Assembly: GCA_020724885.1 (NCBI GenBank)
Contig: DYGD01000002.1
Location: 3,038-67,037 of the forward strand
Origin: Candidatus Paceibacter sp.
GTDB lineage: Bacteria > Patescibacteriota > Minisyncoccia > Phycocordibacterales > BOKC01
Length of the DNA stretch: 64,000 bases
Reading direction: 5' to 3'
This document shows positions 5,970 through 60,423 of this stretch, piece after piece. The notes under the pieces are model-generated. The model was given only the letters and a program-made list of their open reading frames with translations, made no database searches and was not told the DNA's origin. The translations under genes and the position numbers were made by a program. Every line of letters starts with the position of its first letter. Within the stretch, counting starts at the first letter, position 1.

Positions 5970-5995
5970 TTTATTTTTTCTTTAATTAAAAAATT

Positions 5996-7321
5996 CTACA
6001 CGCCGTTCGTTATCACTAACGCCTTTAGTGTCTTGAGGCCGATTTTTAAATCAAGCATCAAAGACCGATTCTTGATGTAGTAGAGATCGTAGGAAAGCTT
6101 CGTTTTGGTCTCATCGTAGTTTGGGTCAAACTTCGGCGGATTACGTTGATACAGCTGGGCCCAGCCGGAAAGCCCGGGTTTTATAATATGACGGACATTA
6201 TAATAAGGGACTTTCTTCTCATAAAGTCCAGCAATCTCCGGAATCTCCGGTCTAGGACCTATTAGTGACAAATCACCCTTCAACACATTCCACAATTGGG
6301 GAAGTTCGTCAATTCTTGTCCGCCGTATTAATTTACCGACCATAGTGATTCTTTTGGGTTCTGCGACTGTCATTGACCTGAATTTTACAACCTTAAAAAT
6401 TTTATTGTTTCGACCAACCCTGTTCTGGACAAAAAATAAAGGTCCGCCATCATCCAGCTTGATAGCGATAAAAACAAACGGATAAAATATAAGCGAAAAT
6501 ATACCCAAGGGTAGCGTCGAAACTATATCTATCGTCCTCTTCAAAAAATCAAAAGTTGAGCTGTGGGTCTTTGATATATTTTCAAGAAACCAGTTGTATC
6601 TTAGGAGCGAAAGCGGCACCCGATCAAAAATATCTTCGTAAATTTTATGCATATCTATAAACCTGACTTTCGAAAAAATAAGATTGTAAAAATGGGACAG
6701 GATCGGCTCAACCTTCTCGCTTCTCAAATCAATCGCAATAACTGAAATCTCTTCGGAATAAATTGTCTTCAAAACCTCTTCTTTAAAATCTAAACCCTCA
6801 ATTTCATCCAAATCAACTGACGAAATAAATTGGATCCCATAACGATTATTACTGTTAACCTCTGACCTGAGCTCTTTCATCTCCTCGCCACTACCAACAA
6901 TCATCGCTTTCTGCCTCTTTTGCGGGGTGAAAAAATTCTGCCCCCTCACTCTCCAAAAAAGAATCATAAGAAAAGAAACCGCCAAGTAGATGAACAGGTT
7001 GGTCTTCGGAGTGATGCCAAAGTATGGTATGAAATAAAAGAAGACGATGGCAATTAGAGTATTGATGATTTGGGCATTCAGAATCATACTGGGAAGCCGA
7101 CTCTGGAAAATCAAAGTATGCTTCTCATACAAACCAGCAATAAAGAAAACCAGTAGCCAAACGGCAAAAAGTATGGAAAATGGCTCCAAGTGGTTTAATA
7201 ACAGCTCCCTATTAGGCAGGCCTTGAGACCGAATTAGAAGCATTAGCCAAAGAGAAACTAGGAATATAAAAAGATCCCCCGCGAATAGAAAAAAAGCGTC
7301 TCTTTTACCAAAAAAAGCCAT
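5996..7321 (-). CDS. Polyprenyl-phosphate sugar phosphotransferase (WbaP/WcaJ-like bacterial sugar transferase)
   Basis: N-terminal TM segments; C-terminal ELPQLWNVLKGDLSLIGPRPE sugar-transferase signature. Confidence 0.8.
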   Translation of the reverse strand: MAFFGKRDAFFLFAGDLFIFLVSLWLMLLIRSQGLPNRELLLNHLEPFSILFAVWLLVFFIAGLYEKHTLIFQSRLPSMILNAQIINTLIAIVFFYFIPYFGITPKTNLFIYLAVSFLMILFWRVRGQNFFTPQKRQKAMIVGSGEEMKELRSEVNSNNRYGIQFISSVDLDEIEGLDFKEEVLKTIYSEEISVIAIDLRSEKVEPILSHFYNLIFSKVRFIDMHKIYEDIFDRVPLSLLRYNWFLENISKTHSSTFDFLKRTIDIVSTLPLGIFSLIFYPFVFIAIKLDDGGPLFFVQNRVGRNNKIFKVVKFRSMTVAEPKRITMVGKLIRRTRIDELPQLWNVLKGDLSLIGPRPEIPEIAGLYEKKVPYYNVRHIIKPGLSGWAQLYQRNPPKFDPNYDETKTKLSYDLYYIKNRSLMLDLKIGLKTLKALVITNGV

Positions 7322-8786: not shown

Positions 8787-9929
8787 TTATATTAAAACTC
8801 CCTCCTGCTTCTCGTCTTTGTGAAAAGTGCCTCGGTATTTTCTCATACCCATCAATATGCCCAGCGCCGAAAATTCTGCCAAGAGATGAGAGCCACCATA
8901 GCTGGTAAAAGGTAAGGTAATACCGGTAATCGGTAAGAGCCCGACATTTATCCCGACATGAACAGCAAAATGACTGATAAACCAAAAAGTTACTCCGGCG
9001 CCAAAAAGTATTTCAAAATTTGAAGAGCCATAAATCGAATTGCTGATAATCCTCCAAACCAAGACCAAAAAAACGACAGAAAATATCAAGACACCAAACA
9101 AACCCCATTCTTCAGCAAAAGCCGCGAAAATAAAATCGGTTTGGTATTCCGGCAAAAAACGCAAACGCGACTGGGTACCGAAACCAATCCCCTTTCCGAA
9201 CCACTGGCCACTACCGACAGCAATCATGGATTGCAAAGAATGATAGCCGGCGCCTTGGATATCAGCCAGTGGATTAAGAAAAGCGCTTAATCTTTGCTTC
9301 TGATAATCCGCCAGAACAAACACCCACAAAAAAGCAAAAGACAGAACTCCGGCAGTTAAGACCCCAAGAATGTGCTTTTTTGATATTCCCGAGACCATTA
9401 CCATACCAAACCAAACCAAGAAAATAATGATTGAAGAACCAAAATCCGGCTGAAGAAAAATTAAAAGAAACAAAACAAAGGCATAAAGTCCGGAAACCAA
9501 GATGTGCTTAAAGTGGGCAATTTCAATATGCCTTTTGGAAAAAAATTTAGCTAATACAATCACCAGAGCAAGCTTGGCAAAATCAGTCGGCTGAAACGAA
9601 AAAAAACCGAGATCAATCCAGCGCTCAGAACCTTTTACCGTCATACCCAAGAAAGCTAGAGACACGAGTAGCAAAAAGGCGAAAGAAAATATTGATATCG
9701 CAACCACACTCCTTCTTAGAAACCTCCAATCAACCAAGCTAAAAACAAAAAAAACAAGCAACGAGGCAGAAAGCCAGATAATTTGTCTAAAAAAAAACGG
9801 GCTTTCTTCGGAAAAAGAATGCATCGTTACTAATCCAGCGACAGAGAGAAGGAGGGCGGACAAAAGCAAAATCCAATCAATATCAAAAAAACCCCTTATT
9901 TTTGTGTAGACCAAATTAAAGGTCTTCAT
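8787..9929 (-). CDS. FtsW/RodA/SpoVE family peptidoglycan glycosyltransferase (SEDS)
   Basis: ~10 TM with the conserved C-terminal SEDS region. Confidence 0.8.
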   Translation of the reverse strand: MKTFNLVYTKIRGFFDIDWILLLSALLLSVAGLVTMHSFSEESPFFFRQIIWLSASLLVFFVFSLVDWRFLRRSVVAISIFSFAFLLLVSLAFLGMTVKGSERWIDLGFFSFQPTDFAKLALVIVLAKFFSKRHIEIAHFKHILVSGLYAFVLFLLIFLQPDFGSSIIIFLVWFGMVMVSGISKKHILGVLTAGVLSFAFLWVFVLADYQKQRLSAFLNPLADIQGAGYHSLQSMIAVGSGQWFGKGIGFGTQSRLRFLPEYQTDFIFAAFAEEWGLFGVLIFSVVFLVLVWRIISNSIYGSSNFEILFGAGVTFWFISHFAVHVGINVGLLPITGITLPFTSYGGSHLLAEFSALGILMGMRKYRGTFHKDEKQEGVLI

Positions 9930-17541: not shown

Positions 17542-18625
17542 TCTAACGATATTTAGCCTTACCGGTTAGTTCCGGCAGATTCACCCGAGCTATTGATGTC
17601 TCGAGTTACTCAAGAATAGCAACCAAGGAGTTTTTCTTGTTTTCGCCTACAGGGCTATCACCTCCTGGGGCTTCTCTTTCCAGAGAATTCGGCTAACAAA
17701 AAAATATTTTTTACTCCTCTGGCTAGGCCGTGTTGCTATCTTACAACCCCCCTCCCCAGTTTTGAATTATGGAAATTTCCATATCTCAAAACTGGGGAGG
17801 GGTTTGGGCTCTTTCCTTTTCGCTCGCCGCTACTAAGAAAATTCCTATTGGTCTCTTTTCCTCCGGGTACTGAAATGTTTTACTTCCCCGGGTTTGCATC
17901 TCGAACTGGTCGAGATTTCCGCCAAAAGCGGAAGGGTTTCCCCATTCGGACATCTCCGGATCAAAGGTTGCTAGGCACCTCCCCGAAGCATATCGCCGCC
18001 AAGCCGCGTCCTTCATCGCTCGTTAGAACCTAGGCATCCACCATACGCCCTTGAATTCCCATCAGGAAATTCAAAAACCGCTGTCAATGCGAAGCATTGA
18101 CCGCGGACACACGCAGACAGGACGCAGAAATACGCAGAAATCTAACTCGAAACCACATGGCTACGAATCAAGATTCTGCGACCTTCTGCGTTCGTTCTGC
18201 GATATTCTGCGGTCAGTGCTTCGCACTGACATTTTTGCTCTCTTTTATACAATCAATCTGCGCAAAGCGCAGATTTGCCTGTCCCGAAACCCTATCTTCC
18301 GAAAGAATTCCGGGATAATCTGTCTACAACAAATAAAGACCCCTCGACTACGCTCGGAGTAAACTCCTTAGTAATCAAAAGTTTTGTTGTGACAGGATTT
18401 TGTCTGCGATATCGGGCTATGCCCAACTCGCGGAACTTTTGTCAAACAACATTCCTTCATCCATTCTGGCTCTATCTTCCGGCCAAATTTCTGTTGTTTA
18501 ACAGAAATTTGGCCGAGAGACAAAAAAACCGCCTTTTAAGCGGATTTGACTATCACATAACGATAAAATCACCGTCTCCGCTTGAGTTTTGATATTAAAA
18601 AATTTATTAACATAACTTTATTCTA

Positions 18626-26753: not shown

Positions 26754-26803
26754 TTTCCAGCACCAGTTTTGGGTTCGCGCGAACCCAAAACTGGTGCTGG
26801 AAA
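26754..26803. repeat. 50-nt perfect palindrome (tttccagcaccagttttgggttcgc|gcgaacccaaaactggtgctggaaa)
   Basis: Read directly; lies in a ~700-nt non-coding AT-rich region between two minus-strand genes. Confidence 0.8.
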
Positions 26804-27345: not shown

Positions 27346-28218
27346 CTAGAGATTCAATGAATACCTACTCCAACGACGCTCCCCTTCTTTCTTCAAAACT
27401 CCGCCATTTACCATCAAAATAAGCTCTCTTTGTATAGTTTTTTCACTACAGTCCTTTATTTTGTCTGATATGTCCTTTATAGATGCTTCTTTGATGTCTT
27501 TTATCACATCTAGAATTTTAATTTGTCTTTTATTTTTTCTGTCTTTCTTTTCAACCCTATTCATTAAATGCCCATTATCCACAACCTTGCGCGTCGGAAC
27601 AGCCAGGTTGTCTAATGGATCTCCATAGTCAATCTTTTTCAGATCTTTTCCAATATCCAAACCCGACAACTTAGCGCCAGATGATTCATTCCGTGAATTA
27701 AAATCAGACGGACCCTCCGGAGACAAATCTAAAGCTTCCTCTTCTATTTCTAAGCCATCTACGTAAGATCTGGCTAATTCAAAAAGCTTTTCCAACTCAC
27801 TTTTTATAACTCTAAAATTCATTTCAGAAACAAGTCCGGAAAGAAAAGACGTCTCTAACAAAGAAGAGATCTTTAAGAGATCCGACCTCCAAATCTCCAA
27901 CCATTGTTTTTTGCCATTTTTTACAACTCCGTTTTTAATAGAAGAAGAAGAATTTAAAATCCCCAACGCGCTCTTCTTAAGGCCGATCCTTAACGGCTCA
28001 CCGGTGTCCAATAGACCCGTCAAAAGATAGACAGCCGATACAACCCTTACTGTCTTTTTGTGGAACGAAGAAAGTTTATCGTCCTTTAGATTTATTAATC
28101 TGTCCTTTAAAGAAATCTGATTTCCGCCTTCGTAATTAAGGGTATTTTCTGGGTATCTTTTTATTTGTCCTTTTTCTGACATATTGTGTCCTTTTAAAAA
28201 GCTCTGGTAAAAAAACAA
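27346..28218 (-). CDS. Hypothetical protein with C-terminal winged-HTH DNA-binding domain
   Basis: C-terminal ILDVIKDIKEASIKDISDKIKDCSEKTIQRELILMVNGGVLKKEGERRW; divergent from ftsK. Confidence 0.4.
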   Translation of the reverse strand: MFFYQSFLKGHNMSEKGQIKRYPENTLNYEGGNQISLKDRLINLKDDKLSSFHKKTVRVVSAVYLLTGLLDTGEPLRIGLKKSALGILNSSSSIKNGVVKNGKKQWLEIWRSDLLKISSLLETSFLSGLVSEMNFRVIKSELEKLFELARSYVDGLEIEEEALDLSPEGPSDFNSRNESSGAKLSGLDIGKDLKKIDYGDPLDNLAVPTRKVVDNGHLMNRVEKKDRKNKRQIKILDVIKDIKEASIKDISDKIKDCSEKTIQRELILMVNGGVLKKEGERRWSRYSLNL

Positions 28219-49157: not shown

Positions 49158-49233
49158 AAAAACAATTTTATCACTTTTGTAATGACTTACAAAAACAAAA
49201 CTCCCCCGCGCAAGCAGGAGAGAAAGAAGAGAT

Positions 49234-49349
49234 TTGCGAGGAGAGCGGGGTTGTTCCGGTTCCAGTCGTTGTCGAGCCAGTTCCAGTTGACCTTGACGCG
49301 GTTGCCGTTCCAGATGAGGTAGGCAACCTTGCGATTGCCGCCGGACTCC
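49234..49349 (-). repeat. DGR template repeat (TR), 116 bp, in the leader of ileS
   Basis: Minus strand reads ...AAT CGC AAG ... AAC GGC AAC ... AAC TGG AAC TGG ... AAC GAC TGG AAC CGG AAC AAC CCC GCT CTC CTC GCA A (Asn/AAC-rich); identical to VR except at adenines. Confidence 0.85.
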
Positions 49350-49697: not shown

Positions 49698-50249
49698 TCA
49701 AAAATCAAAGGAACTTGCGAGGAGAGCGGGGCAGTCCCGGCGCCAGTCGTCGCCGAGCCAGCGCCAGAGGACCAAGACGCGGTCGCCGTACCAGACGAGG
49801 TAGGCAACCCTGCGACGGCCGCCGGACTCCCGGACAGAACCCCACAGGGAAACCACCTTGTCTTTGAACTCGTCCGGGTAAGTCGTCGGATTGTCGAGCC
49901 AGCCCTTGACCTCCGGGCTCTCCAATGAGCTAGCGCGCTTGATCATACCGGTCTGATCAAGATGTCTAAAGAGTTCAAATCCATCAATCACCCCTCCGCC
50001 TTCTTGTGTTGGATGGAAGTAGAGTTCGTAATCAGGAGGCATCAGCGCCTCGCGAAGCGTTCTGGTGAGAGAACCCTGATTTGTGATCCATCCCTGGGCC
50101 ACATCAGGATCCATGTCTCGAGGCAGACCCCGCGCAACCGCAGACATCAGTTCAGAGAACTGATCAATTCCCATCAGTCCTCCCCGTCCTTCTTTCTTTT
50201 TCCTACCCATTCCGAATTCTCCTTTCTGGCTTACCTCTGATTCGGCCAC
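49698..50249 (-). CDS. DGR target protein with C-terminal variable region (GC-rich gene; probable start at Met26, 50174, preceded by GGAGG)
   Basis: C-terminus ESGGRRRVAYLVWYGDRVLVLWRWLGDDWRRDCPALLA corresponds to TR-encoded ESGGNRKVAYLIWNGNRVKVNWNWLDNDWNRNNPALLA; no signal peptide. Confidence 0.75.
   Translation of the reverse strand: MAESEVSQKGEFGMGRKKKEGRGGLMGIDQFSELMSAVARGLPRDMDPDVAQGWITNQGSLTRTLREALMPPDYELYFHPTQEGGGVIDGFELFRHLDQTGMIKRASSLESPEVKGWLDNPTTYPDEFKDKVVSLWGSVRESGGRRRVAYLVWYGDRVLVLWRWLGDDWRRDCPALLASSFDF
49715..49830 (-). repeat. DGR variable repeat (VR), 116 bp, 3' end of target gene
   Basis: Aligned base-for-base with TR; ~22 mismatches, every one at a TR adenine (coding strand), e.g. 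AAT->CGT, AAC->TAC/GAC/CTC/CGC/TGC, AAG->TTG; ends with GC-rich CCCCGCTCTCCTCGCAA (IMH-like). Confidence 0.85.
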
Positions 50250-51799: not shown

Positions 51800-53518
51800 C
51801 TACATTTTCTCCGGCACCTCAATCCCCAATAGCCACAATCCATTTTGGAGAGTAATAAAAACCGCTTCGGTTAAGGCAATTTTATAAGGAGAATTTTTGT
51901 CTGTTTTATCCACAATTTTTTCTTTAGCGTAAAAGCCGTTGAACTCGCCGGCCAGCTCAATCAAATATGTAGCCAATTTTTGCGGCGCAAATTCTTTCGC
52001 CGCCTCTTCCACCACTTCCGGAAACTTATAAAGTAATCTTTCTACATTATTTATCTCCGTTGATTCAGAATTGGCAGACGGCTTAATCTTTTCCTGCCCG
52101 GCTTTTTCTAAAACTGATTTGGCGCGCACCGCCGAATACTGCAAGTACGGACCGGAGTCGCCCTCAAACGAGAGCGATTTTTCAAAATCAAAAACAATAT
52201 TTTTGCCCGGCGCTTGTTTTAAAATTGAATACTTGAGCGCGGCAACGGCAACTTTGTCGGCAACATCTTCTTTATTTTCTATCTCACGCTCCGCCATTTT
52301 TTGAAGAGCCAGATTATGAAGCTGATTTAAAAGCTCTTCCCCGCCAATGATGTTGCCGGTCCGCGAAGACATCCGGCCTTCGGAAAGACGCAAGCGACCG
52401 TGAGACAAGTGTTCAATTTTTCCTTTGAGTTTAGGAAAAACAAATTCAGACGCTTTAACAACCACTTTATAATATTCGGACTGCTCAACATCGGTAACAG
52501 TAATGGAACGGTCAAATTTAAAAAACTTGCGCTTCAATTCAATTAACCCTAAATCTTTAGCTTCATAAGTCGGCAGGCCTTCGGAATTTATGAAAACGCG
52601 GGTGTGAAGGCCTGATTTCTCACCAGATAAAATTATTGCATTTTCACTTTTCTCAAACATGCCTTCAGCTAAAAATTTGGCGACCAATTTCCGGCCGACT
52701 TCTCCCGCTTCGCTTTCAAAAAAACTGGCGTCAAATTTGCTACCGAGCCGAGTGTAAATTTTTTTAAAATGACTAAGAGAGAGCTCCAGTCCTTTTTTAT
52801 AAATTTCGTTTATCTCCGGGTCGCTCTGTTCGTAGATTTTTTTGTTTATTTCTACAATTTCTTTTCTAGCTGCCTCATCTGCTTCATAAGCTCTATCCCC
52901 TTCCGCATACGCTTTTCCAAGAATTTCTATCGTAAGCTGTTGACTGCTCGTTGTAGAGGTTGTTGGTTGTAGAGGTTGTTGGTTGATTAATGCCCAAACC
53001 ACCTTGGCAACATGAAGCCCGACATCGCCGTGATAAGTCGCTCTTTTAAGTTTTGGCCCTTCCGCTTCAATAAGGCGAGAAACTGCTTCACCGACAATGT
53101 TGTTTACCAAGTGGCCAATATGAAAAACTTTAAAAGGATTCGGCTGGGTGTATTCAATTATTATTTTCTGTCCAACTAGATTCTTGTTCAAACCAAAATC
53201 TTTTTTCTCTTTTAGAATTTCTTTTGTTGAAGAAATAAAAAAATCTTTTGAAAGATAAAAATTTATAAATCCCGGCCCGGCGATTTCGATTTTTTGCAAA
53301 AAATCGAAATCGCCCTGGGTTCGCCGAAGAATAGACACGATTTTCTCCGCCAACTCTCTTGGGTTTTTGCCTAAATCTTTGGCATATAAAAGCGAAACAT
53401 TGGATGAAAAATCGCCGTGAGAAATTTCGGCCGGGTGCTCAAGCTCCACTTTTGGATTTTCTACCCCAAAATCTTCCAGCGCCCTCTTTATTAAATTTTC
53501 CAATTTTTCTTTAATCAC
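51800..53518 (-). CDS. argS: Arginyl-tRNA synthetase (carries an in-frame repeat insertion QQPLQPTTSTTSSQQ)
   Basis: HIGHLVNNIVGEAVSRL (HIGH) and MSSRTGN (KMSKS-equivalent) motifs. Confidence 0.9.
   Translation of the reverse strand: MIKEKLENLIKRALEDFGVENPKVELEHPAEISHGDFSSNVSLLYAKDLGKNPRELAEKIVSILRRTQGDFDFLQKIEIAGPGFINFYLSKDFFISSTKEILKEKKDFGLNKNLVGQKIIIEYTQPNPFKVFHIGHLVNNIVGEAVSRLIEAEGPKLKRATYHGDVGLHVAKVVWALINQQPLQPTTSTTSSQQLTIEILGKAYAEGDRAYEADEAARKEIVEINKKIYEQSDPEINEIYKKGLELSLSHFKKIYTRLGSKFDASFFESEAGEVGRKLVAKFLAEGMFEKSENAIILSGEKSGLHTRVFINSEGLPTYEAKDLGLIELKRKFFKFDRSITVTDVEQSEYYKVVVKASEFVFPKLKGKIEHLSHGRLRLSEGRMSSRTGNIIGGEELLNQLHNLALQKMAEREIENKEDVADKVAVAALKYSILKQAPGKNIVFDFEKSLSFEGDSGPYLQYSAVRAKSVLEKAGQEKIKPSANSESTEINNVERLLYKFPEVVEEAAKEFAPQKLATYLIELAGEFNGFYAKEKIVDKTDKNSPYKIALTEAVFITLQNGLWLLGIEVPEKM
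52950..52985. repeat. Tandem 18-mer repeat gttgtagaggttgttgg x2 inside argS, shared with intergenic repeat at 32981..33012
   Basis: Exact 18-mer match between the two loci. Confidence 0.75.
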
Positions 53519-54947: not shown

Positions 54948-55376
54948 TTATTTCCTCCCCGTGCTTCCCCACCGACCCTCGCCACGACTGGATGTAGAGA
55001 GTTCTTCAACTTGCTCAAAAGCAACAATCTCCACCGGACAAACCACCAATTGAGCGATTTTGTCGCCTTTTTCAATTTTGTATGGTTCGGAGCCCAGATT
55101 AACCAAATGAACATTATACTCGCCACGATAACCGGCATCATAAACCCCACCCATGGTTGAAAGACCGGCTTTGGCCATACTGCCTTTATCCCAAATCAAC
55201 GCCGCATATCCTTCCGGAAATTCCATAGCAAACCCGAGAAAAAAAATGTGGTGTTCGCCCGAATTTAAAACTTTGTCTTCCAAAGAATACAAATCCATTC
55301 CTACATCGCCCGGATGAGCATAGGAAGGAAGTTTGGACTCTGGATTTAATATTTTTATTTTAAAAATTTGAGGCAT
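54948..55376 (-). CDS. dut: dUTP diphosphatase (start set at MPQIFKIKIL; ORF extends to 55505)
   Basis: Motifs AGYRGE and RGEGRWGSTG. Confidence 0.85.
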   Translation of the reverse strand: MPQIFKIKILNPESKLPSYAHPGDVGMDLYSLEDKVLNSGEHHIFFLGFAMEFPEGYAALIWDKGSMAKAGLSTMGGVYDAGYRGEYNVHLVNLGSEPYKIEKGDKIAQLVVCPVEIVAFEQVEELSTSSRGEGRWGSTGRK

Positions 55377-55508
55377 AAGTAATTTTGGATATTTGAATAA
55401 GTAAACAAATGAATAACAGAATTTTAACATGGAATGAAAAAGGCGCCCGCGACCGGAGGGGGTCACAGGCGCCGTTGGAGAGAACACAGAGTACGAGCTC
55501 TTCATTCG

Positions 55509-56087
55509 TCAGAAGAAGACGATCACGATAGTTGGTTTTTTGAATCTGCAGGTGTTGTTTGTGGAGTCGGTGCATTCCTGCACCTTCTCGCACCGGAGTC
55601 GTGTACAGCCCATGCTGATCCCATCGTCGCAATCGCATGCGTCTGCGACGATGACATTGGCCTTTCCCTGCGCCATGAAGAACTGCTTGGCCTTCATGGC
55701 GACCAGAGAGCCGTCCACGAAGTGGATGTCAATCCACATCGTGATTCTCCCGCCTTCCAAGCCAACGTCGGCCTCGATTGCGAAGATGTCGCTCGCCTCC
55801 GGATCGGGCGAGATAGCGAGGAAGGTGATGCGGTCGGTTTCGACATTGACCGCCTGCTCGGCAGTCGTGAACTCCACCGAGCCGTAGCCGTTGGAGACGC
55901 TGATCTGGATGCCATCCCAGCTGATGCGGAGACCGCCTTCCAGGTAGAAGAGATCCCCGATGGGGATCTCTTCCTGGATTGTGGAGACGGGAGTCGGCTC
56001 GTCAGAGTAGACCACCTGCCCGCTCACGAGGAGCGGACAGAACATCATGGCGACAACCGCCACCAGAATCGAGAGGACTTGCTTCAT
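55509..56087 (-). CDS. Secreted Cys-rich hypothetical protein in GC-rich island
   Basis: Signal peptide MKQVLSILVAVVAMMFCPLLVSGQ; C-terminal CDCDDGISMGCTRLRCEKVQEC; GC far above background. Confidence 0.45.
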   Translation of the reverse strand: MKQVLSILVAVVAMMFCPLLVSGQVVYSDEPTPVSTIQEEIPIGDLFYLEGGLRISWDGIQISVSNGYGSVEFTTAEQAVNVETDRITFLAISPDPEASDIFAIEADVGLEGGRITMWIDIHFVDGSLVAMKAKQFFMAQGKANVIVADACDCDDGISMGCTRLRCEKVQECTDSTNNTCRFKKPTIVIVFF

Positions 56088-56117
56088 GGTTTTTCACTCC
56101 TTGTGTTTTGTCTTGAC

Positions 56118-57092
56118 TCACTCACGGATGTCCCACTCGTACGTCCGAGTGGTCAGCAGACCGGACTGGTATTTTCCTTTCCGGTTGTGGATTCTGAAGT
56201 TCTCCTTTCCGACCATAAGCCCGGTCTCGGCATCCAGGAAGTAGGTGTTGGCGCCGAAAGACACACCGTGGTGTCCTTCTTCAGCGTCCTCTTCGACATC
56301 GTCGTAGAACAGACAGTAGGCCCTGTAGAGTTTGCGACCACTTGGATCAGTCACCGAGTCCAGTAACTGACCTCGGCTGGCGATGACTTTGGCGATGCTG
56401 TCGGCTTCGCCGTTCTGCCAGATCACCCAGGCCTCGGCGTTGGCGCCACAGGCAGCTGGCAGTCCGACAAGCGCCGGATTGCCCAAGACATTCTCCGCTT
56501 GGTCAATCCATTCCTCGTCGTAGAAATCCGACAAGGGGAACGATCCGGACTGCCAAGTGATTCTATTAGACTGCGAAGTGGAACCGTTCAGGAGATTTTC
56601 CACCGAACCGACCGGCCGACCAGTGTCCTCATCCGCCTTGATGCAGATCACAGAAACCGGTTCATCAGAGATGTCGGGTCGGTAGACCTTCGACTCCAAG
56701 CTTCTTGGTGTTGTAGAGATGAATGAGACGATTCTGATCGAGATGTATGTGCCCTTCTCGCCAGCCGCGAGCGCTTGTTGGCTAGCCACTCGGGCATCTC
56801 TTTCTCCAAATTCTCCGTCTTCAAGACCCATTTCGTAGTAGATGACGTCCTCGGTCATCTTGATCTGTATCTCGTGAGACGAGTTGACCGCCTCACGGAA
56901 CCGCTCCGCGAGAATCTTGGCGTCCATCTCTTCCGTAGAGGTGGCGGCCGGTGGCGCGCTCTGATTGGTCTCCTCATCCTGCTGAGGACCGGTAGGATTA
57001 ACCAACAGAGCAAGCACCGCCAAAACCGCAGAGACCGTTTGTGCTTTCATATATGCTCTCCCTTTTCGAGGTGCAGGCAAACCAACCATCAA
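56118..57092 (-). CDS. Secreted hypothetical protein in GC-rich island
   Basis: Signal peptide MKAQTVSAVLAVLALLVNPTGP; GC-rich. Confidence 0.45.
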   Translation of the reverse strand: MMVGLPAPRKGRAYMKAQTVSAVLAVLALLVNPTGPQQDEETNQSAPPAATSTEEMDAKILAERFREAVNSSHEIQIKMTEDVIYYEMGLEDGEFGERDARVASQQALAAGEKGTYISIRIVSFISTTPRSLESKVYRPDISDEPVSVICIKADEDTGRPVGSVENLLNGSTSQSNRITWQSGSFPLSDFYDEEWIDQAENVLGNPALVGLPAACGANAEAWVIWQNGEADSIAKVIASRGQLLDSVTDPSGRKLYRAYCLFYDDVEEDAEEGHHGVSFGANTYFLDAETGLMVGKENFRIHNRKGKYQSGLLTTRTYEWDIRE

Positions 57093-57197
57093 CCGAAACG
57101 CTCGGTTGCGATTAGTTTTAAGTCCATTTTCAGTATAGGAAGTTGGGGCAGCTTGTCAAGAGGTAGATTCAGGGCTGGGGATTACCGCTTCGAGTTC

Positions 57198-58370
57198 TTA
57201 ATTTCTTAAAATTTTATCAATATGTCGAGCTACCCGAATCATATCCTTCTCCGTCTTGCCACGAGTCGTTTCAGCCGCCGTGCCGAGCCGGATGCCAGAT
57301 GGGTCAATCGGACTTCTGGTGTCAAACGGGATGGTATTTTTGTTGACGATAATTCCGGCTTTTTCAAGTTTGTCGCTCGCAACTTTCCCGCTGATTCCTC
57401 TTCCATCCATCCAAACATCCACCAAAATTAAATGGGAATCAGTGCCACCGGAAATTATCCTCCAGCCCGACCGCGAAAGTTCATTGCTTAAAACTTTTGC
57501 ATTTTTAATAACTTGCTTGGCGTATTTTTTAAATTCGGGCGACATCGCTTCTTTGAGCGCAACAGCCGTCGCCGCGATTTGGTTCAAATGCGGCCCACCC
57601 TGAAGACCCGGAAAAACCGCTTTATCAATTTTTTTATTTAATTCCCTCTCATCAACTTTTGAAAAAATCATTGCTGCGCGGGGGCCACGCAAAGTTTTAT
57701 GAACGGTTGTCGTTACAACATCGGCATACAAAAAAGGCGACGGATAAACTCCGCCGGCAATCAGCCCGGCAATATGAGACATATCCACCATCAAAAACGC
57801 GCCACAACTATTTGCAATTTCTCTGAATTTTTTCCAATCAATTAAACGCGGATACGCGGTAAAACCGGCAACGATGATTTTTGGCTTTTCTTTTTGAGCA
57901 ATCTTTTTTAGTTCATCGTAATCCAAAACTTCCGTATTTTTATCAACTCCGAAAGACACTTGCCGCCAAATTTTACCGGTTGCCGACACCTTATGACCGT
58001 GGGTTAAGTGTCCGCCGTGGTCCAAAGACATTCCCATTATCTTCCCTCCGGTCGGGACAAGAGCCAAATAAACCACTAAATTTGCCGGACTGCCGGAAAG
58101 TGGCTGAACATTAACTGCCCACTCTTCCGGATTTAATCTAAAAAGTTTAAGCGCTCTTTTTTGGGCTAAAATTTCAATTTTGTCTGAAATTTCGTTACCG
58201 CCATAGTAGCGGAAATTCGGATAACCTTCGGCATATTTATTAGTCAATTCGGAGCCGAGAGATTTCAAAACATCTTTTGAAACATAATTCTCGGAAGCAA
58301 TTAAATTTATAACGTTTTTCTGCCTCTTGTTCTCGGCTTTGATGAGTTTTTCTACTTCTTTATCTTGCAT
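57198..58370 (-). CDS. glyA: Serine hydroxymethyltransferase
   Basis: LIASENY and VVTTTVHKTLRGPR (PLP-lysine region) motifs. Confidence 0.9.
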   Translation of the reverse strand: MQDKEVEKLIKAENKRQKNVINLIASENYVSKDVLKSLGSELTNKYAEGYPNFRYYGGNEISDKIEILAQKRALKLFRLNPEEWAVNVQPLSGSPANLVVYLALVPTGGKIMGMSLDHGGHLTHGHKVSATGKIWRQVSFGVDKNTEVLDYDELKKIAQKEKPKIIVAGFTAYPRLIDWKKFREIANSCGAFLMVDMSHIAGLIAGGVYPSPFLYADVVTTTVHKTLRGPRAAMIFSKVDERELNKKIDKAVFPGLQGGPHLNQIAATAVALKEAMSPEFKKYAKQVIKNAKVLSNELSRSGWRIISGGTDSHLILVDVWMDGRGISGKVASDKLEKAGIIVNKNTIPFDTRSPIDPSGIRLGTAAETTRGKTEKDMIRVARHIDKILRN

Positions 58371-58435
58371 CCGAATTATGATAGCACAGCAACAGACACC
58401 CTGCCCCGCCAGAATCCCAGTAAAAGGAGCATTAC

Positions 58436-58645
58436 ATGGGTGAGAAAGATTTGGGAATCTGCACTTGTTCTTGCCATGAAGACGCCAACCGAAGCTGTCG
58501 CCAATGTGAGCAATGTGTGGAATGTCCTTCTTGCGAAACGTTCTTCACAGGACACAAACCCCTTGAGAGGCATCAGGATCCATGCAAAATGGCTCAAAAG
58601 CGATTTTCTCAACATCTCGCCAAGAAAATTCACAGAAAACGCTAG
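58436..58645 (+). CDS. Small Cys-rich (8 Cys) hypothetical protein, probable zinc-ribbon
   Basis: CTCSCH...CRQCEQCVECPSCE; AAAGGAG RBS 8 nt upstream of ATG. Confidence 0.4.
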   Translation: MGEKDLGICTCSCHEDANRSCRQCEQCVECPSCETFFTGHKPLERHQDPCKMAQKRFSQHLAKKIHRKR

Positions 58646-58718
58646 CACGGCACCGACTCAAGCGACCGCTAGACAGGTCACTTTTTTCATATCTAAAATC
58701 TTAGTCAAAAACCACATA

Positions 58719-58752
58719 TTAACAATTTGTCACGGCCGTGTTAAATTGTTAA
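58719..58752. promoter_or_regulatory. 34-nt near-perfect palindrome ttaacaatttgTcacggccgtgTTAaattgttaa upstream of 58870..59391
   Basis: Degenerate copy of the perfect palindrome at 59559..59592. Confidence 0.6.
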
Positions 58753-58869
58753 TATTGTAAAAAATGTTAGAATACTATTAAAAGACAGATAGATTTTGGA
58801 TAGAAATAAAGGAAAGAAACAAAAGAGAAAAAAGAAAAGTAAGAAAATCAAAAAAGTGAAATTAAAATT

Positions 58870-59391
58870 ATGATATACAGAGGAACATTTACCGAGATAC
58901 TTCTTAAAATTTTACTCTACAAAACTCATACTTTTCGACAGGTGGAGGAAATGGTGAGAAGACATCGGCAGTTTGAAGATGTTTCCACCGACTCTATTCG
59001 AAGCACCCTTTCCCGACTTAAAAAGAAAAAGTTGGCGGTAAAAACATCGGCCGGCTGGTCGGCCAGTAATCTGGCTTTGGCTACCTTAGGAAGCAGGAGT
59101 GATTTTAACAAGATTAGCCGTCAGGCGACAAAAAACAATCAGAAAGGAAAATCGAGAGGAAAAGAAGTGGATGAAGACAGAATGATTGTAATGTATGACA
59201 TTCCGGAAAAACTAAGAAGTAAACGTGATCGATTGAGAGACGGATTAAAAATTCTAGGTTTCAAACAAAAGCAGCAAAGTGTCTGGATTGGACCGGCTCC
59301 TTTGCCTCGCGAATTTGTAGAGTTCCTTGGAGAATTAAGAATATTAAAATATATAAACTTTTTTCAGGTTAAGAGTGAAGATATTGTGTAA
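58870..59391 (+). CDS. wHTH + Cas2-like (ferredoxin-fold) domain protein, PaaX-like minimal regulator
   Basis: C-terminal RMIVMYDIPEKLRSKRDRLRDGLKILGFKQKQQSVWIG follows the Cas2 pattern (hVhYDh....RR..h...L...G.R.Q.SV); N-terminal winged-helix-like region. Confidence 0.5.
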   Translation: MIYRGTFTEILLKILLYKTHTFRQVEEMVRRHRQFEDVSTDSIRSTLSRLKKKKLAVKTSAGWSASNLALATLGSRSDFNKISRQATKNNQKGKSRGKEVDEDRMIVMYDIPEKLRSKRDRLRDGLKILGFKQKQQSVWIGPAPLPREFVEFLGELRILKYINFFQVKSEDIV

Positions 59392-59558
59392 GAAAAAGTA
59401 AAAAAACAAAAAGGAGTAAAAAAGTTTCTTATTTAATCCCGCCACAGAATTCTCCATAGCCCGGCCAGTGAGATAGTTTATTTCTTATAAGATTACAATT
59501 CCAATTTGATATTTATTCTCAATCTTTTCTTATCTCATTTCTTATCTCATTCTCAATC

Positions 59559-59592
59559 TTAACAATTTGCCACGGCCGTGGCAAATTGTTAA
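59559..59592. promoter_or_regulatory. 34-nt perfect palindrome ttaacaatttgccacggccgtggcaaattgttaa downstream of 58870..59391
   Basis: Perfect dyad read from sequence. Confidence 0.7.
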
Positions 59593-59733
59593 GGTGTGAT
59601 TTTTAATTAATTTTGATCACTAATTAGTAGCCATTTAGTTACTATTTTAATCAATTTTCAAGCTGTGGAATCTCAACCAAACTCAATCAAACCATACGGA
59701 AGAAGGATGGAAGGATAATTAAGACAGATAATT

Positions 59734-60423
59734 TTAAAGGATTCTTTCAACTATATTAAAGACCTTCTCGTTAATTTGCTCCGGCAACATACAGATCGGA
59801 CCTTTGCAGCAAGAGATTTTCTTCCAGTTTTTATTTATTTTTGCCAAATACAGGGCGCTGTTTCGGGAATCCTTGAGATGGAGCAAATTGTCTTCGGCAA
59901 CATCACGCTTGCCATTGAGATATTTCTTGCTTTTTTGGGCAACTTTTTTCTGAAGCCACATTTTGCTGACCTCAAACGGCACGTCAAGATAGATAACTAA
60001 ATCCGGCCTCGGAATTTCAAAAATCCCGTATTCCATTTTGTCCAACCATTCCAAAAATTTCTTTCTTTCAGTTGCGGACTTGATTTTCCCGCCCTGATGA
60101 ATTTGGTTAGCGCTGACATAACGATCGGAAATTACAATAAATCCAGCGTCAAGCCAGCTTCTAATTTGCCTGCTTGATTCAAAGCGGTCAGCCGCGTAAA
60201 GAACCGAAGCCACCCGCGGGTCGGTCTGAATAAAGTCGCCAAACTTACCACTTAAATAATTACCAATCAGCTCGCCGAAAAAGTTATCGTAGTAACGCGG
60301 AAAATCAATCGTTTTTACCTTGTATCCTTCTTTTTTAAGACGCTCGGCCAAAAGCGTAGTCTGAGTGGCCTTCCCCGAACCATCAATGCCGTCAATAACT
60401 ATGAGCTTCCCTTTCATTAGCAT
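59734..60423 (-). CDS. tmk: Thymidylate kinase
   Basis: P-loop IVIDGIDGSGKAT; dTMP kinase family pattern. Confidence 0.85.
   Translation of the reverse strand: MLMKGKLIVIDGIDGSGKATQTTLLAERLKKEGYKVKTIDFPRYYDNFFGELIGNYLSGKFGDFIQTDPRVASVLYAADRFESSRQIRSWLDAGFIVISDRYVSANQIHQGGKIKSATERKKFLEWLDKMEYGIFEIPRPDLVIYLDVPFEVSKMWLQKKVAQKSKKYLNGKRDVAEDNLLHLKDSRNSALYLAKINKNWKKISCCKGPICMLPEQINEKVFNIVERIL

Follow-up and report, generated by a model that had tools for sequence, protein, structure and literature searches.

We describe here mini-PaaX, a small gene bracketed by two copies of a long palindrome in a 64-kb stretch of the Candidatus Paceibacter sp. contig DYGD01000002.1. The whole stretch is referred to as the window, and the contigs and loci used for comparison carry L numbers. 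The gene (58870..59391, plus strand) is an open reading frame (ORF) of 173 aa that starts with ATG. It is probable that the gene and its palindromes form an autonomous, autoregulated repressor cassette, in which one operator is embedded in the promoter and a second one follows the stop codon, and that this cassette was inserted into the tmk-glyA operon. A homodimeric autorepressor is the best explanation because the upstream palindrome overlaps the best promoter.

The downstream palindrome (TTAACAATTTGCCACGGCCGTGGCAAATTGTTAA) is a perfect one of 34 bp at 59559-59592, 167 nt past the stop codon. The upstream one (TTAACAATTTGTCACGGCCGTGTTAAATTGTTAA) is a degenerate copy at 58719-58752, which carries three differences and lies 117 nt ahead of the ATG. 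Both had been reported in this form and at these places in a preliminary description of the DNA. When up to 3 mismatches are allowed, exactly two matches to the palindrome occur in the window, versus 0 expected (100 shuffles). Each copy reaches a length of about 40 bp if 1-2 mismatched pairs are included (58716-58755 and 59556-59595), and the extended units are hereafter referred to as the proposed operators O1 and O2, respectively. O1 (58716..58755) contains two mismatched pairs, has its dyad centre between 58735 and 58736, and fits the half-site consensus of the family given below (C-3/G+3, TG at +11/+12, TTAA at +13..+16). O2 (59556..59595), which is possibly also a terminator, has its dyad centre between 59575 and 59576, and its perfect core is followed by GTGATTTTTA. 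An apparent 72-nt extension of the inverted repeat was not accepted as a terminal inverted repeat because the flanks are of low complexity and rich in AT and because an alignment in direct orientation reaches about as far. An RNA-level element was rejected as well. Rfam returned only a spurious sub-threshold miRNA match for the palindrome, no tRNA or tmRNA was detected in the window, and G·U pairs are not enriched.

The best-scoring sigma-70-like promoter overlaps the upstream palindrome in the window and at nearly all homologous loci. In the window, the promoter candidate P1 (58727..58755, plus strand) lies wholly within the upstream palindrome: its -35 element TTGTCA (58727-58732) is followed by a 17-nt spacer containing the CGGCCG core and by the extended -10 element TGtTAATAT (58747-58755). 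An alternative candidate, P2 (58746..58773, plus strand), has its -35 element TTGTTA (58746-58751) in the right arm of the palindrome, then a 16-nt spacer and TG-n-TAGAAT (TGtTAGAAT), with the -10 at 58768-58773. The homologous loci show the same two geometries. In class A, the -35 is located at -9 and the extended -10 at +14/+15 from the dyad, as in P1 (L012, L014, L015, L016, L018, L022, L025, L026, and L031); in class B, the -35 is located in the right arm and the -10 at +33..+37, as in P2, and this is the best match in L001, L028, L029, L032-L034, L036, L038, L042, and L047. The class B -10 often ends 6-11 nt ahead of the ATG, which suggests a leaderless mRNA. Judging from the promoter consensus, a protein bound to the palindrome would occlude RNA polymerase in both geometries.

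The two-palindrome bracket is a trait of the family, present at ~40 of 44 related loci of Patescibacteria. For each gene, the 5′ flank was compared with its own 3′ flank by Smith-Waterman alignment, and flank pairs from different loci served as the control. The flank pairs scored above the 99th percentile of the control (18.4; null mean 10.2) in 34 of the 44 loci, with real scores of up to 45, and the palindrome pair is visible by eye in five further loci (L025, L030, L036, L039, and L049). At L035, the second copy lies 475 nt downstream. In the first three homologous loci inspected, there are two long copies with the core ACGGCCGT or ACGATCGT and with arms unlike those of the window. The palindromes of the family are 26-66 bp long, often perfect, and different between paralogs. 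Their dyad-to-dyad spacing is 526-714 bp around a gene of ~500 bp (typically ~530-630 bp); that of the window, 840 bp, is the longest because both untranslated regions are expanded. The preliminary description had counted a palindrome found only at this place against its own reading. Within the window this is literally the case, but cognate pairs bracket the homologues at ~40 other loci.

Three further features of the bracket concern its relation to the surrounding DNA. One is that no palindrome with the family signature was found away from mini-PaaX genes in the 441 kb of DNA examined. Another is that the cassette is oriented at random relative to its neighbours (upstream, 21 divergent and 14 tandem; downstream, 18 convergent and 15 tandem), which argues for an autonomous unit and led to the rejection of a regulation of the neighbouring genes through a fixed orientation. 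The last feature is that the cassettes enclose a single gene; no second gene, such as an antitoxin partner, was found within the brackets. Copies of the window palindrome in metagenomes were also considered as further cassettes and rejected: seven contigs carry the core, none of them encodes mini-PaaX as judged by tblastn and hidden Markov model searches, and they were therefore assigned to unrelated organisms. One of these unrelated contigs, L065, contains two identical palindromes of ~40 bp with the window core TGTGTTAATTTGCCACGGCCGTGGCAAATTAACACA at 5984-6007 and 9788-9811, 3.8 kb apart. They flank two large ORFs of secreted or surface type, and no mini-PaaX is detectable there.

The palindromes of some loci coincide with irregular contigs. 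The 1080-nt Logan contig L002 folds back perfectly on itself (540+540 nt), its centre being the downstream palindrome of the P0003 cassette, and the Logan contig L073 stops ~196 nt past the gene, roughly where the downstream palindrome of the window falls. The perfect palindromes of the family thus appear to break or invert short-read assemblies (L002, L003, and L073). At L052 (3001-3199), just the last ~39 residues of mini-PaaX are recognisable, in a 34-aa ORF, and an intact 46-bp palindrome lies 34 nt downstream; the cassette seems to be decaying, and its genome has three other paralogs.

The sequences of the palindromes were next compared by aligning them on their centres, which gave the half-site consensus 5'-TTAACA-TTTT-NN-RCG-R|Y-CGY-NN-AAAA-TGTTAA-3'. 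The most conserved positions are G+3 and C-3 (98-100%), T+11 (87%), and G+12 (77-84%), together with T14, A15, and A16. The conservation profile is alike in the upstream and downstream copies, and the two copies of one locus are nearly always identical at ±3-4 and ±11-17. Dyad symmetry was examined in an ungapped alignment of 61 palindromes with an imposed dyad of 18 pairs. Paired cells accounted for 86.7%, as compared with 56% in shuffled alignments and 34-43% when the partner column was slid; changes on both sides were found in 17 of the 18 dyad pairs; and the covariation score was 0.735 versus 0.19, a value reached in 0 of 500 shuffles. G·T pairs made up ~3% of the cells and ~18% of the non-Watson-Crick cells, which is the level of unselected mismatches. 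The two-sided changes without G·T enrichment point to a symmetry constraint on duplex DNA and not on an RNA stem. A separate test for an RNA hairpin, the strand asymmetry of G·T versus A·C, gave 8 versus 6 mismatches, numbers too small for a decision. Symmetry is tightest at ±10-17 (93-98% paired) and at ±3-4, and the positions ±10-17 are also the most divergent between paralogs. This pattern fits specificity contacts that would co-evolve with each paralog, with a homodimer reading all the half-sites.

The differences between the two copies of one locus show a further pattern. At positions 5-17, 16 compensated and 78 uncompensated differences were counted, where ~2 compensated ones are expected by a rough estimate. 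In addition, asymmetric 4-nt centres (GGTC/GACC, TATC/GATA) are flipped between the copies in L015, L032, L034, L036, and L049 and are in direct orientation elsewhere. Template-switch correction of quasipalindromes is a documented mechanism by which inverted repeats are perfected (PMC7202029), and it could be the source of both the compensated differences and the flipped centres.

The downstream copy is usually located 2-60 nt past the stop codon, and it is perfect more often than the upstream copy (13/31 versus 8/31). In the window, it passes a simple terminator scan (18 pairs, loop of 4, T-rich tail) and is the dominant structure when the 3′ region is folded as RNA (z = -3.6). A second operator is nevertheless the most economical reading of this copy because its recognition positions are conserved like those of the upstream copy, and termination is possible as a secondary role. 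Inside the downstream palindrome there is also a promoter-like site on the minus strand (59584->59556; TTGCCA-17-TAAGAT with TG) that faces the cassette interior, and a 37-aa hydrophobic antisense ORF (59344-59457, minus strand) overlaps the 3′ end of the gene. These could be signs of an antisense transcript or mere chance.

The product of the gene has a winged helix-turn-helix at its N-terminus, a disordered basic linker, and a C-terminal domain of the PaaX_M/Cas2 fold with the motif MYDIPE...R...R...QSVWIGPAPLP. The deposited gene call of this protein (P0001) is 146 aa long and begins at Met28; the 173-aa ORF is the right gene model because the homologues align across all 173 aa. Searches against the Pfam, NCBIfam, PHROGs, and PADLOC profiles gave PaaX_M and Cas2 as the only matches, with no transposase or recombinase domain. 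The Pfam family PaaX_M (PF20803, 'PaaX protein central Cas2-like domain') matches residues 101-170 with an E-value of 6.1e-17 and 61.9 bits (cut-off 24). The Cas2 matches are marginal, and each alignment spans just ~37-40 residues: the Pfam model (PF09827; 21.2 bits, cut-off 23.8) falls slightly below and the NCBIfam model (TIGR01573; 25.5 bits, cut-off 24.5) slightly above the threshold. The PaaX equivalog model TIGR02277 falls far short (17.5 bits versus a cut-off of 264.55). Pfam reported no match to PaaX_C, the protein stopping at residue 173, straight after the Cas2-like domain, or to the PaaX N-terminal domain. An AlphaFold2 model built on 16 homologues, with a predicted local distance difference test score of 80, consists of a winged helix-turn-helix at residues 7-65 (H-H-H-beta-beta), a disordered Lys-rich linker at 80-100, and a ferredoxin-like beta-alpha-beta-beta-alpha-beta domain at 104-167. 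When the PDB was searched with Foldseek, the full-length model gave E. coli PaaX (8a39) as the top match, and the C-terminal domain gave the Cas2 structures 5zyf, 3exc, and 8ia4. The N-terminal domain matched the winged helices of PaaX, PadR, eS19, and the PhiH1 repressor in fold and profile. The PaaX-like architecture proposed in the preliminary description, a winged helix followed by a Cas2-fold domain, is therefore borne out, minus the PaaX C-terminal domain. The profile search it had named as a check came out clearly for PaaX_M, whereas for Cas2 one model was just missed and the other just passed. The protein is a member of the broad PaaX_M superfamily and is neither a PaaX orthologue nor a Cas2.

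Among 70 diverse members, D110 is invariant, E113 is at least 90% conserved, and R123, S137, and G141 are also conserved. D110 aligns with the catalytic Asp of Cas2. D-I-P-E lies at the junction of beta1 and alpha1, where it also has the typical form of a helix N-capping box, and the conservation of D110 and E113 thus fits a catalytic and a structural role alike. Nuclease activity of the Cas2-fold domain cannot be inferred from such conservation. The family itself is large. A word-indexed homologue search found 16 proteins of 145-225 aa, 16/16 carrying a precomputed PF20803 match. In an exhaustive profile search, 3,512 cluster representatives reached E ≤ 1e-10, and the best 150 of them fall without exception in the range of 125-230 aa. 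When one genome per species was scanned, 41 loci were obtained, every one in metagenome-assembled genomes of Patescibacteria, or the candidate phyla radiation (CPR), several with 2-4 paralogs; the scan used a peptide pattern built from CPR sequences, so that a restriction to CPR is not proven by it.

In the window, the gene is located between glyA (57198..58370, minus strand) and tmk (59734..60423, minus strand), with thyA and folA also nearby. No CRISPR array was found within the window, and no cas1 or other cas genes occur among the neighbours of this gene or of the homologous loci, in agreement with the preliminary description. Nor are paa catabolic genes found near the gene; other loci adjoin genes for tRNA synthetases, RuvB, and the like (RuvB/YebC, CysRS, IleRS/ArgRS). 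Relatives of the window were retrieved through the tmk protein, and the identities given here are those to the tmk of the window. In L053 (CP129473.1), L057, and L059 (81-82%), a mini-PaaX cassette lies on the opposite strand between tmk and glyA, like that of the window. In L055 and L056 (80%), the two genes lie on one strand with a gap of 41 nt, and in L060 (76%) they overlap; none of these three sites has a palindrome. In L069 (79%) and L071 (77%), the gap holds 300-366 nt of other, GC-rich sequence. Because tmk and glyA are adjacent or overlapping in relatives, the cassette can be recognised as a discrete insertion in the tmk-glyA operon. The comparison of empty sites proposed in the preliminary description thus found such sites, but no solo palindrome or footprint at them. 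No target-site duplication was seen, the flanks (76-82% amino-acid identity in tmk) being too diverged for exact junctions or a duplication to be defined.

As for inheritance, genomes of less than 1 Mb carry 2-4 mini-PaaX paralogs, which are 47-61% identical within a genome; no near-identical copies were seen. Orthologous cassettes with conserved flanks share 91% (L014/L015), 84% (L018/L022), and 96% (L038/L042) protein identity. The old paralogs and the syntenic orthologues give no sign of recent transposition, and the synteny across species points to vertical inheritance. The window protein shares 59% identity with the L053 protein at the corresponding position and 60% with the other paralog of that genome; the family therefore evolves much faster than tmk. 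An origin from a phage or plasmid was rejected, as no relatives were found in viral contigs and no match in PHROG.

Other small insertions were found around the same gene cluster. ORFs of the GIY-YIG type (61-99 aa) occur beside thyA in L054 (2406-2591), L057/L058 (2331-2591), L069 (1653-1916), and L071 (1662-1961) and are missing in other relatives (e.g., L053 and L055). Together with the variable tmk-glyA gap, they suggest that the deoxythymidine monophosphate (dTMP) synthesis cluster is a hot spot for selfish insertions. In the window, a 69-aa Cys-rich ORF (58436-58645, plus strand; MGEKDLGICTCSCHEDANRSCRQCEQCVECPSCETFF...) is located between glyA and the cassette, outside the palindromes, in a GC-richer stretch (58371-58718); it has no Pfam match. 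A similar pattern, C.C.CH...C..C..C.EC..C, split by a frameshift, occurs in L069 (3190-3500), in the gap between tmk and glyA and on the corresponding strand, where mini-PaaX is missing. The Cys-rich ORF could represent either a small zinc-ribbon gene of its own or an inserted element. As regards other cassettes, ~0.9 kb of DNA follows both of those in the genome JAZDFV (L015 3583-4587 and L022 3460-4521) and is missing from the orthologous loci of CG23 Jorgensenbacteria. A shared element adjoining these cassettes was rejected, since the two inserts are unrelated to each other.

Based on these results, the repressor cassette would work as follows. The Cas2-fold domain would make mini-PaaX homodimeric, by analogy with PaaX and Cas2, and the dimer would bind the 34-40 bp palindrome on either side of its own gene. 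Each winged helix would recognise an arm motif (TGTTAA-like) located 11-17 bp from the dyad, and the invariant C-3/G+3 core, as its conservation suggests, would be contacted near the dyad. When occupied, the upstream copy, which overlaps the -35 and the extended -10, would repress transcription of the protein's own gene. The downstream copy would be bound likewise and would act as a second operator through looping or as a roadblock, which is the weakest step; it may also terminate transcription from both sides as a hairpin and thereby insulate the cassette from the genes around it. Comparison with the relatives shows that the whole unit, composed of O1 with the promoter, the gene, and O2, was inserted between tmk and glyA in the lineage of the window. 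The cassette of the window would be one of thousands in Patescibacteria, each with its own cognate palindrome.

Several points weigh against this explanation. Every functional step of the repressor model is inferred by us, and the role of the downstream copy is its least secure part. No consistent T-tract follows the downstream copies across the family, so that their terminator function is doubtful as well. With their centres ~27 bp apart, the arm motifs face different sides of the B-DNA helix, and the flexible linker or DNA bending would therefore be needed. Self-only regulation gives the host no obvious benefit, yet orthologues are kept across species. Finally, a homodimer leaves unexplained why the positions ±9-10 and ±18-20 differ between the copies yet stay symmetric within each; such compensated differences need template-switch correction or a hairpin function.

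The preliminary description had offered, besides operators of an autoregulated dimeric regulator, a mobile cassette with hairpin termini. The cassette would then be a selfish one, moved by its own protein, a nuclease or recombinase with site specificity that cleaves or rearranges the DNA at the two end palindromes. In this case, the winged helix would direct the protein to the arms, and the dimer of the Cas2 fold would set the invariant Asp/Glu over the CG-rich dyad. The discrete insertion into a conserved operon stands in favour of this reading, as do the repeats exactly at both ends of a one-gene unit, the unrelated contexts of the homologues, and the 2-4 paralogs in genomes below 1 Mb. The invariant D110, aligned with the catalytic Asp of Cas2, and E113 (at least 90%), the flipped asymmetric centres of five loci, palindromes of up to 66 bp, which is beyond the typical need of an operator, and the GIY-YIG ORFs and other small inserts collected by the dTMP gene cluster in relatives could be explained in the same way. 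However, the paralogs are just 47-61% identical with no near-identical copies, the orthologues are syntenic at 84-96% protein identity, and the empty sites lack a palindrome or footprint. No target-site duplication, solo palindrome, antitoxin, known transposase or recombinase domain, or viral-contig relative was seen. The invariance of D-I-P-E may be structural (the N-capping box), and a GC-rich dyad disfavours cruciform extrusion. We therefore consider this alternative unlikely. In a bolder form, which we hold to be quite unlikely, mini-PaaX would be a new class of gene-sized selfish elements, whose only protein unites a winged helix for sequence reading with a catalytic Cas2-fold dimer that cuts or rearranges DNA at the palindrome centres. 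If true, the activity of the selfish element would account for the operon insertion, the flipped centres, and the self-perfecting long palindromes, and the nuclease fold of Cas2 would have in mini-PaaX a free-living relative that works without Cas1 and has palindromic repeats as its substrate. The operator reading is the better supported one, given the promoter overlap, the conserved positions shared by the copies, and a strictly Watson-Crick symmetry maintained at the DNA level.

Alternatively, the palindromes could be structural elements (bidirectional terminators, insulators, or cruciforms) duplicated with the gene, the protein acting elsewhere or on RNA. The terminator-like downstream copy of the window with its very stable RNA hairpin, the position of this copy 2-60 nt past the stop in most loci, and its more frequent perfection (13/31 versus 8/31) agree with this idea, as do the outer arms with A-tracts and T-tracts, resembling bidirectional terminators, in L014, L015, L029, and L052, and the compensated differences between the two copies of one locus. 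It appears rather improbable all the same. G·T is tolerated no more than other mismatches, which is against selection for an RNA stem; the family keeps C-3/G+3 and TG at +11/+12 whatever the stem stability; and the T-tract is not consistent. Moreover, the ordinary terminators of the genome differ, having GC-rich stems with loops of 3-5 nt, the upstream copies are kept beside divergent neighbours (21/35 loci), where there is nothing to terminate, and a generic terminator would not need its own palindrome for each paralog. Very improbable, finally, is a Cas2/VapD-like toxin (an RNase or DNase effector) or a remnant of CRISPR adaptation, with the repeats as CRISPR-like relics. The TIGR01573 score barely above its cut-off (25.5 bits), the weak PADLOC Cas2 matches (E-values of 1e-6 to 4e-3), and the 34-40 bp repeats around an insert, formally similar to a repeat-spacer-repeat unit, are all that recall such systems. 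The PaaX_M match is far stronger (61.9 versus 21-25 bits), the Cas2 match is limited to beta1-alpha1-beta2, no defence-system model matched besides Cas2, and the single-gene cassette leaves no room for an antitoxin. An origin by repeat duplication is unsupported, since the empty sites have no repeat copy, and a CRISPR relic was rejected for this reason together with the lack of an array, cas1, or any other cas gene.

The repressor cassette can be compared with several known systems. In the E. coli paa operon, the repressor that responds to phenylacetyl-CoA is PaaX (8a39), which likewise combines a winged helix at the N-terminus with a central domain similar to Cas2. Its operators, like the palindromes described here, are inverted repeats of unusual length, with a spacer. 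PaaX (~305-316 aa) carries PaaX_C, whereas mini-PaaX (173 aa) lacks it, and the sites of mini-PaaX, unlike those of PaaX, bracket its own gene only. There is no evident site for a CoA-thioester ligand in mini-PaaX, given that no paa genes are nearby. To our knowledge, E. coli PaaX has no Cas2-like Asp at the position where mini-PaaX keeps it. The repression by PaaX involves DNA binding that occludes promoters (PMC4498308). With Cas2 and VapD, the C-terminal domain of mini-PaaX has the ferredoxin-like beta-alpha-beta-beta-alpha-beta fold in common, and the beta1 'FDIP' Asp and the beta2 'QkSV' motif of Cas2, an obligate homodimer, align with it. Unlike in Cas2, this domain is fused to a DNA-binding domain; mini-PaaX also has no Cas1 or CRISPR context and stays below the Pfam Cas2 threshold. 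Autoregulated repressors, such as the C-proteins of restriction-modification (R-M) systems and type II antitoxins, likewise have a dyad site over their own -35/-10, of the kind that a mini-PaaX dimer is proposed to bind here, and their cognate protein-operator pairs diverge between paralogs, as in mini-PaaX. The operators of mini-PaaX, however, are far longer (34-66 bp), a second full copy follows the stop codon, and there is no R-M or toxin cargo gene under its control. The RAYT/REP and IS200/IS605-type elements resemble mini-PaaX in having one gene between lineage-specific palindromes that differ by paralog. Mini-PaaX differs from them in lacking an HUH/Y1 transposase domain and any sign of recent mobility, and its palindromes, unlike REP sequences, are not dispersed, with two copies in 64 kb and all those in 441 kb lying beside the gene. 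No description of mini-PaaX cassettes was found in the searchable literature, which does not prove them undescribed.

The window contains other features worth recording. Short tandem repeats (59513..59561; period 17 with 2.9 copies and a nested period 12 with 2.2 copies) lie inside the cassette and abut the downstream palindrome. Three further zero-loop palindromes, unrelated in sequence to that of mini-PaaX, are located at 17749-17802 (54 bp, 2 mismatches), 26754-26803 (50 bp, perfect), and 53276-53317 (42 bp), the first two having the CCAGTTTTG motif in common. The one at 26754 is upstream of a 290-aa ORF (27346..28218, minus strand) with a winged-helix-like C-terminus, and these palindromes may represent further private operator/regulator pairs. 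The region of 55000-57100 has a GC content of 50-55%, versus ~40% elsewhere, and holds two minus-strand ORFs without Pfam matches (56118..57092, 324 aa; 55509..56087, 192 aa) in the place where relatives have two hypothetical genes after glyA. A 123-nt direct repeat with 82% identity was also found (49227-49349 and 49708-49830), its copies being 481 nt apart.

These findings bear on the biology of Patescibacteria in several respects. Their genomes are tiny and contain very few recognised regulators, and at least 3,500 clusters (50% identity) of one-gene repressor-plus-operator cassettes would be a sizeable undescribed part of their regulatory or selfish-DNA repertoire. Because each paralog has a 34-66 bp palindrome of its own, the family offers a natural collection of repressor-operator pairs, probably orthogonal to one another, in which the co-evolution of protein and DNA can be studied cleanly. 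Palindromes that break assemblies matter for the quality of metagenome-assembled genomes. Furthermore, a compact relative of PaaX that keeps the beta1 Asp and beta2 Ser motifs of Cas2 is of interest for the question of how the Cas2 fold came to be used in functions related to DNA.

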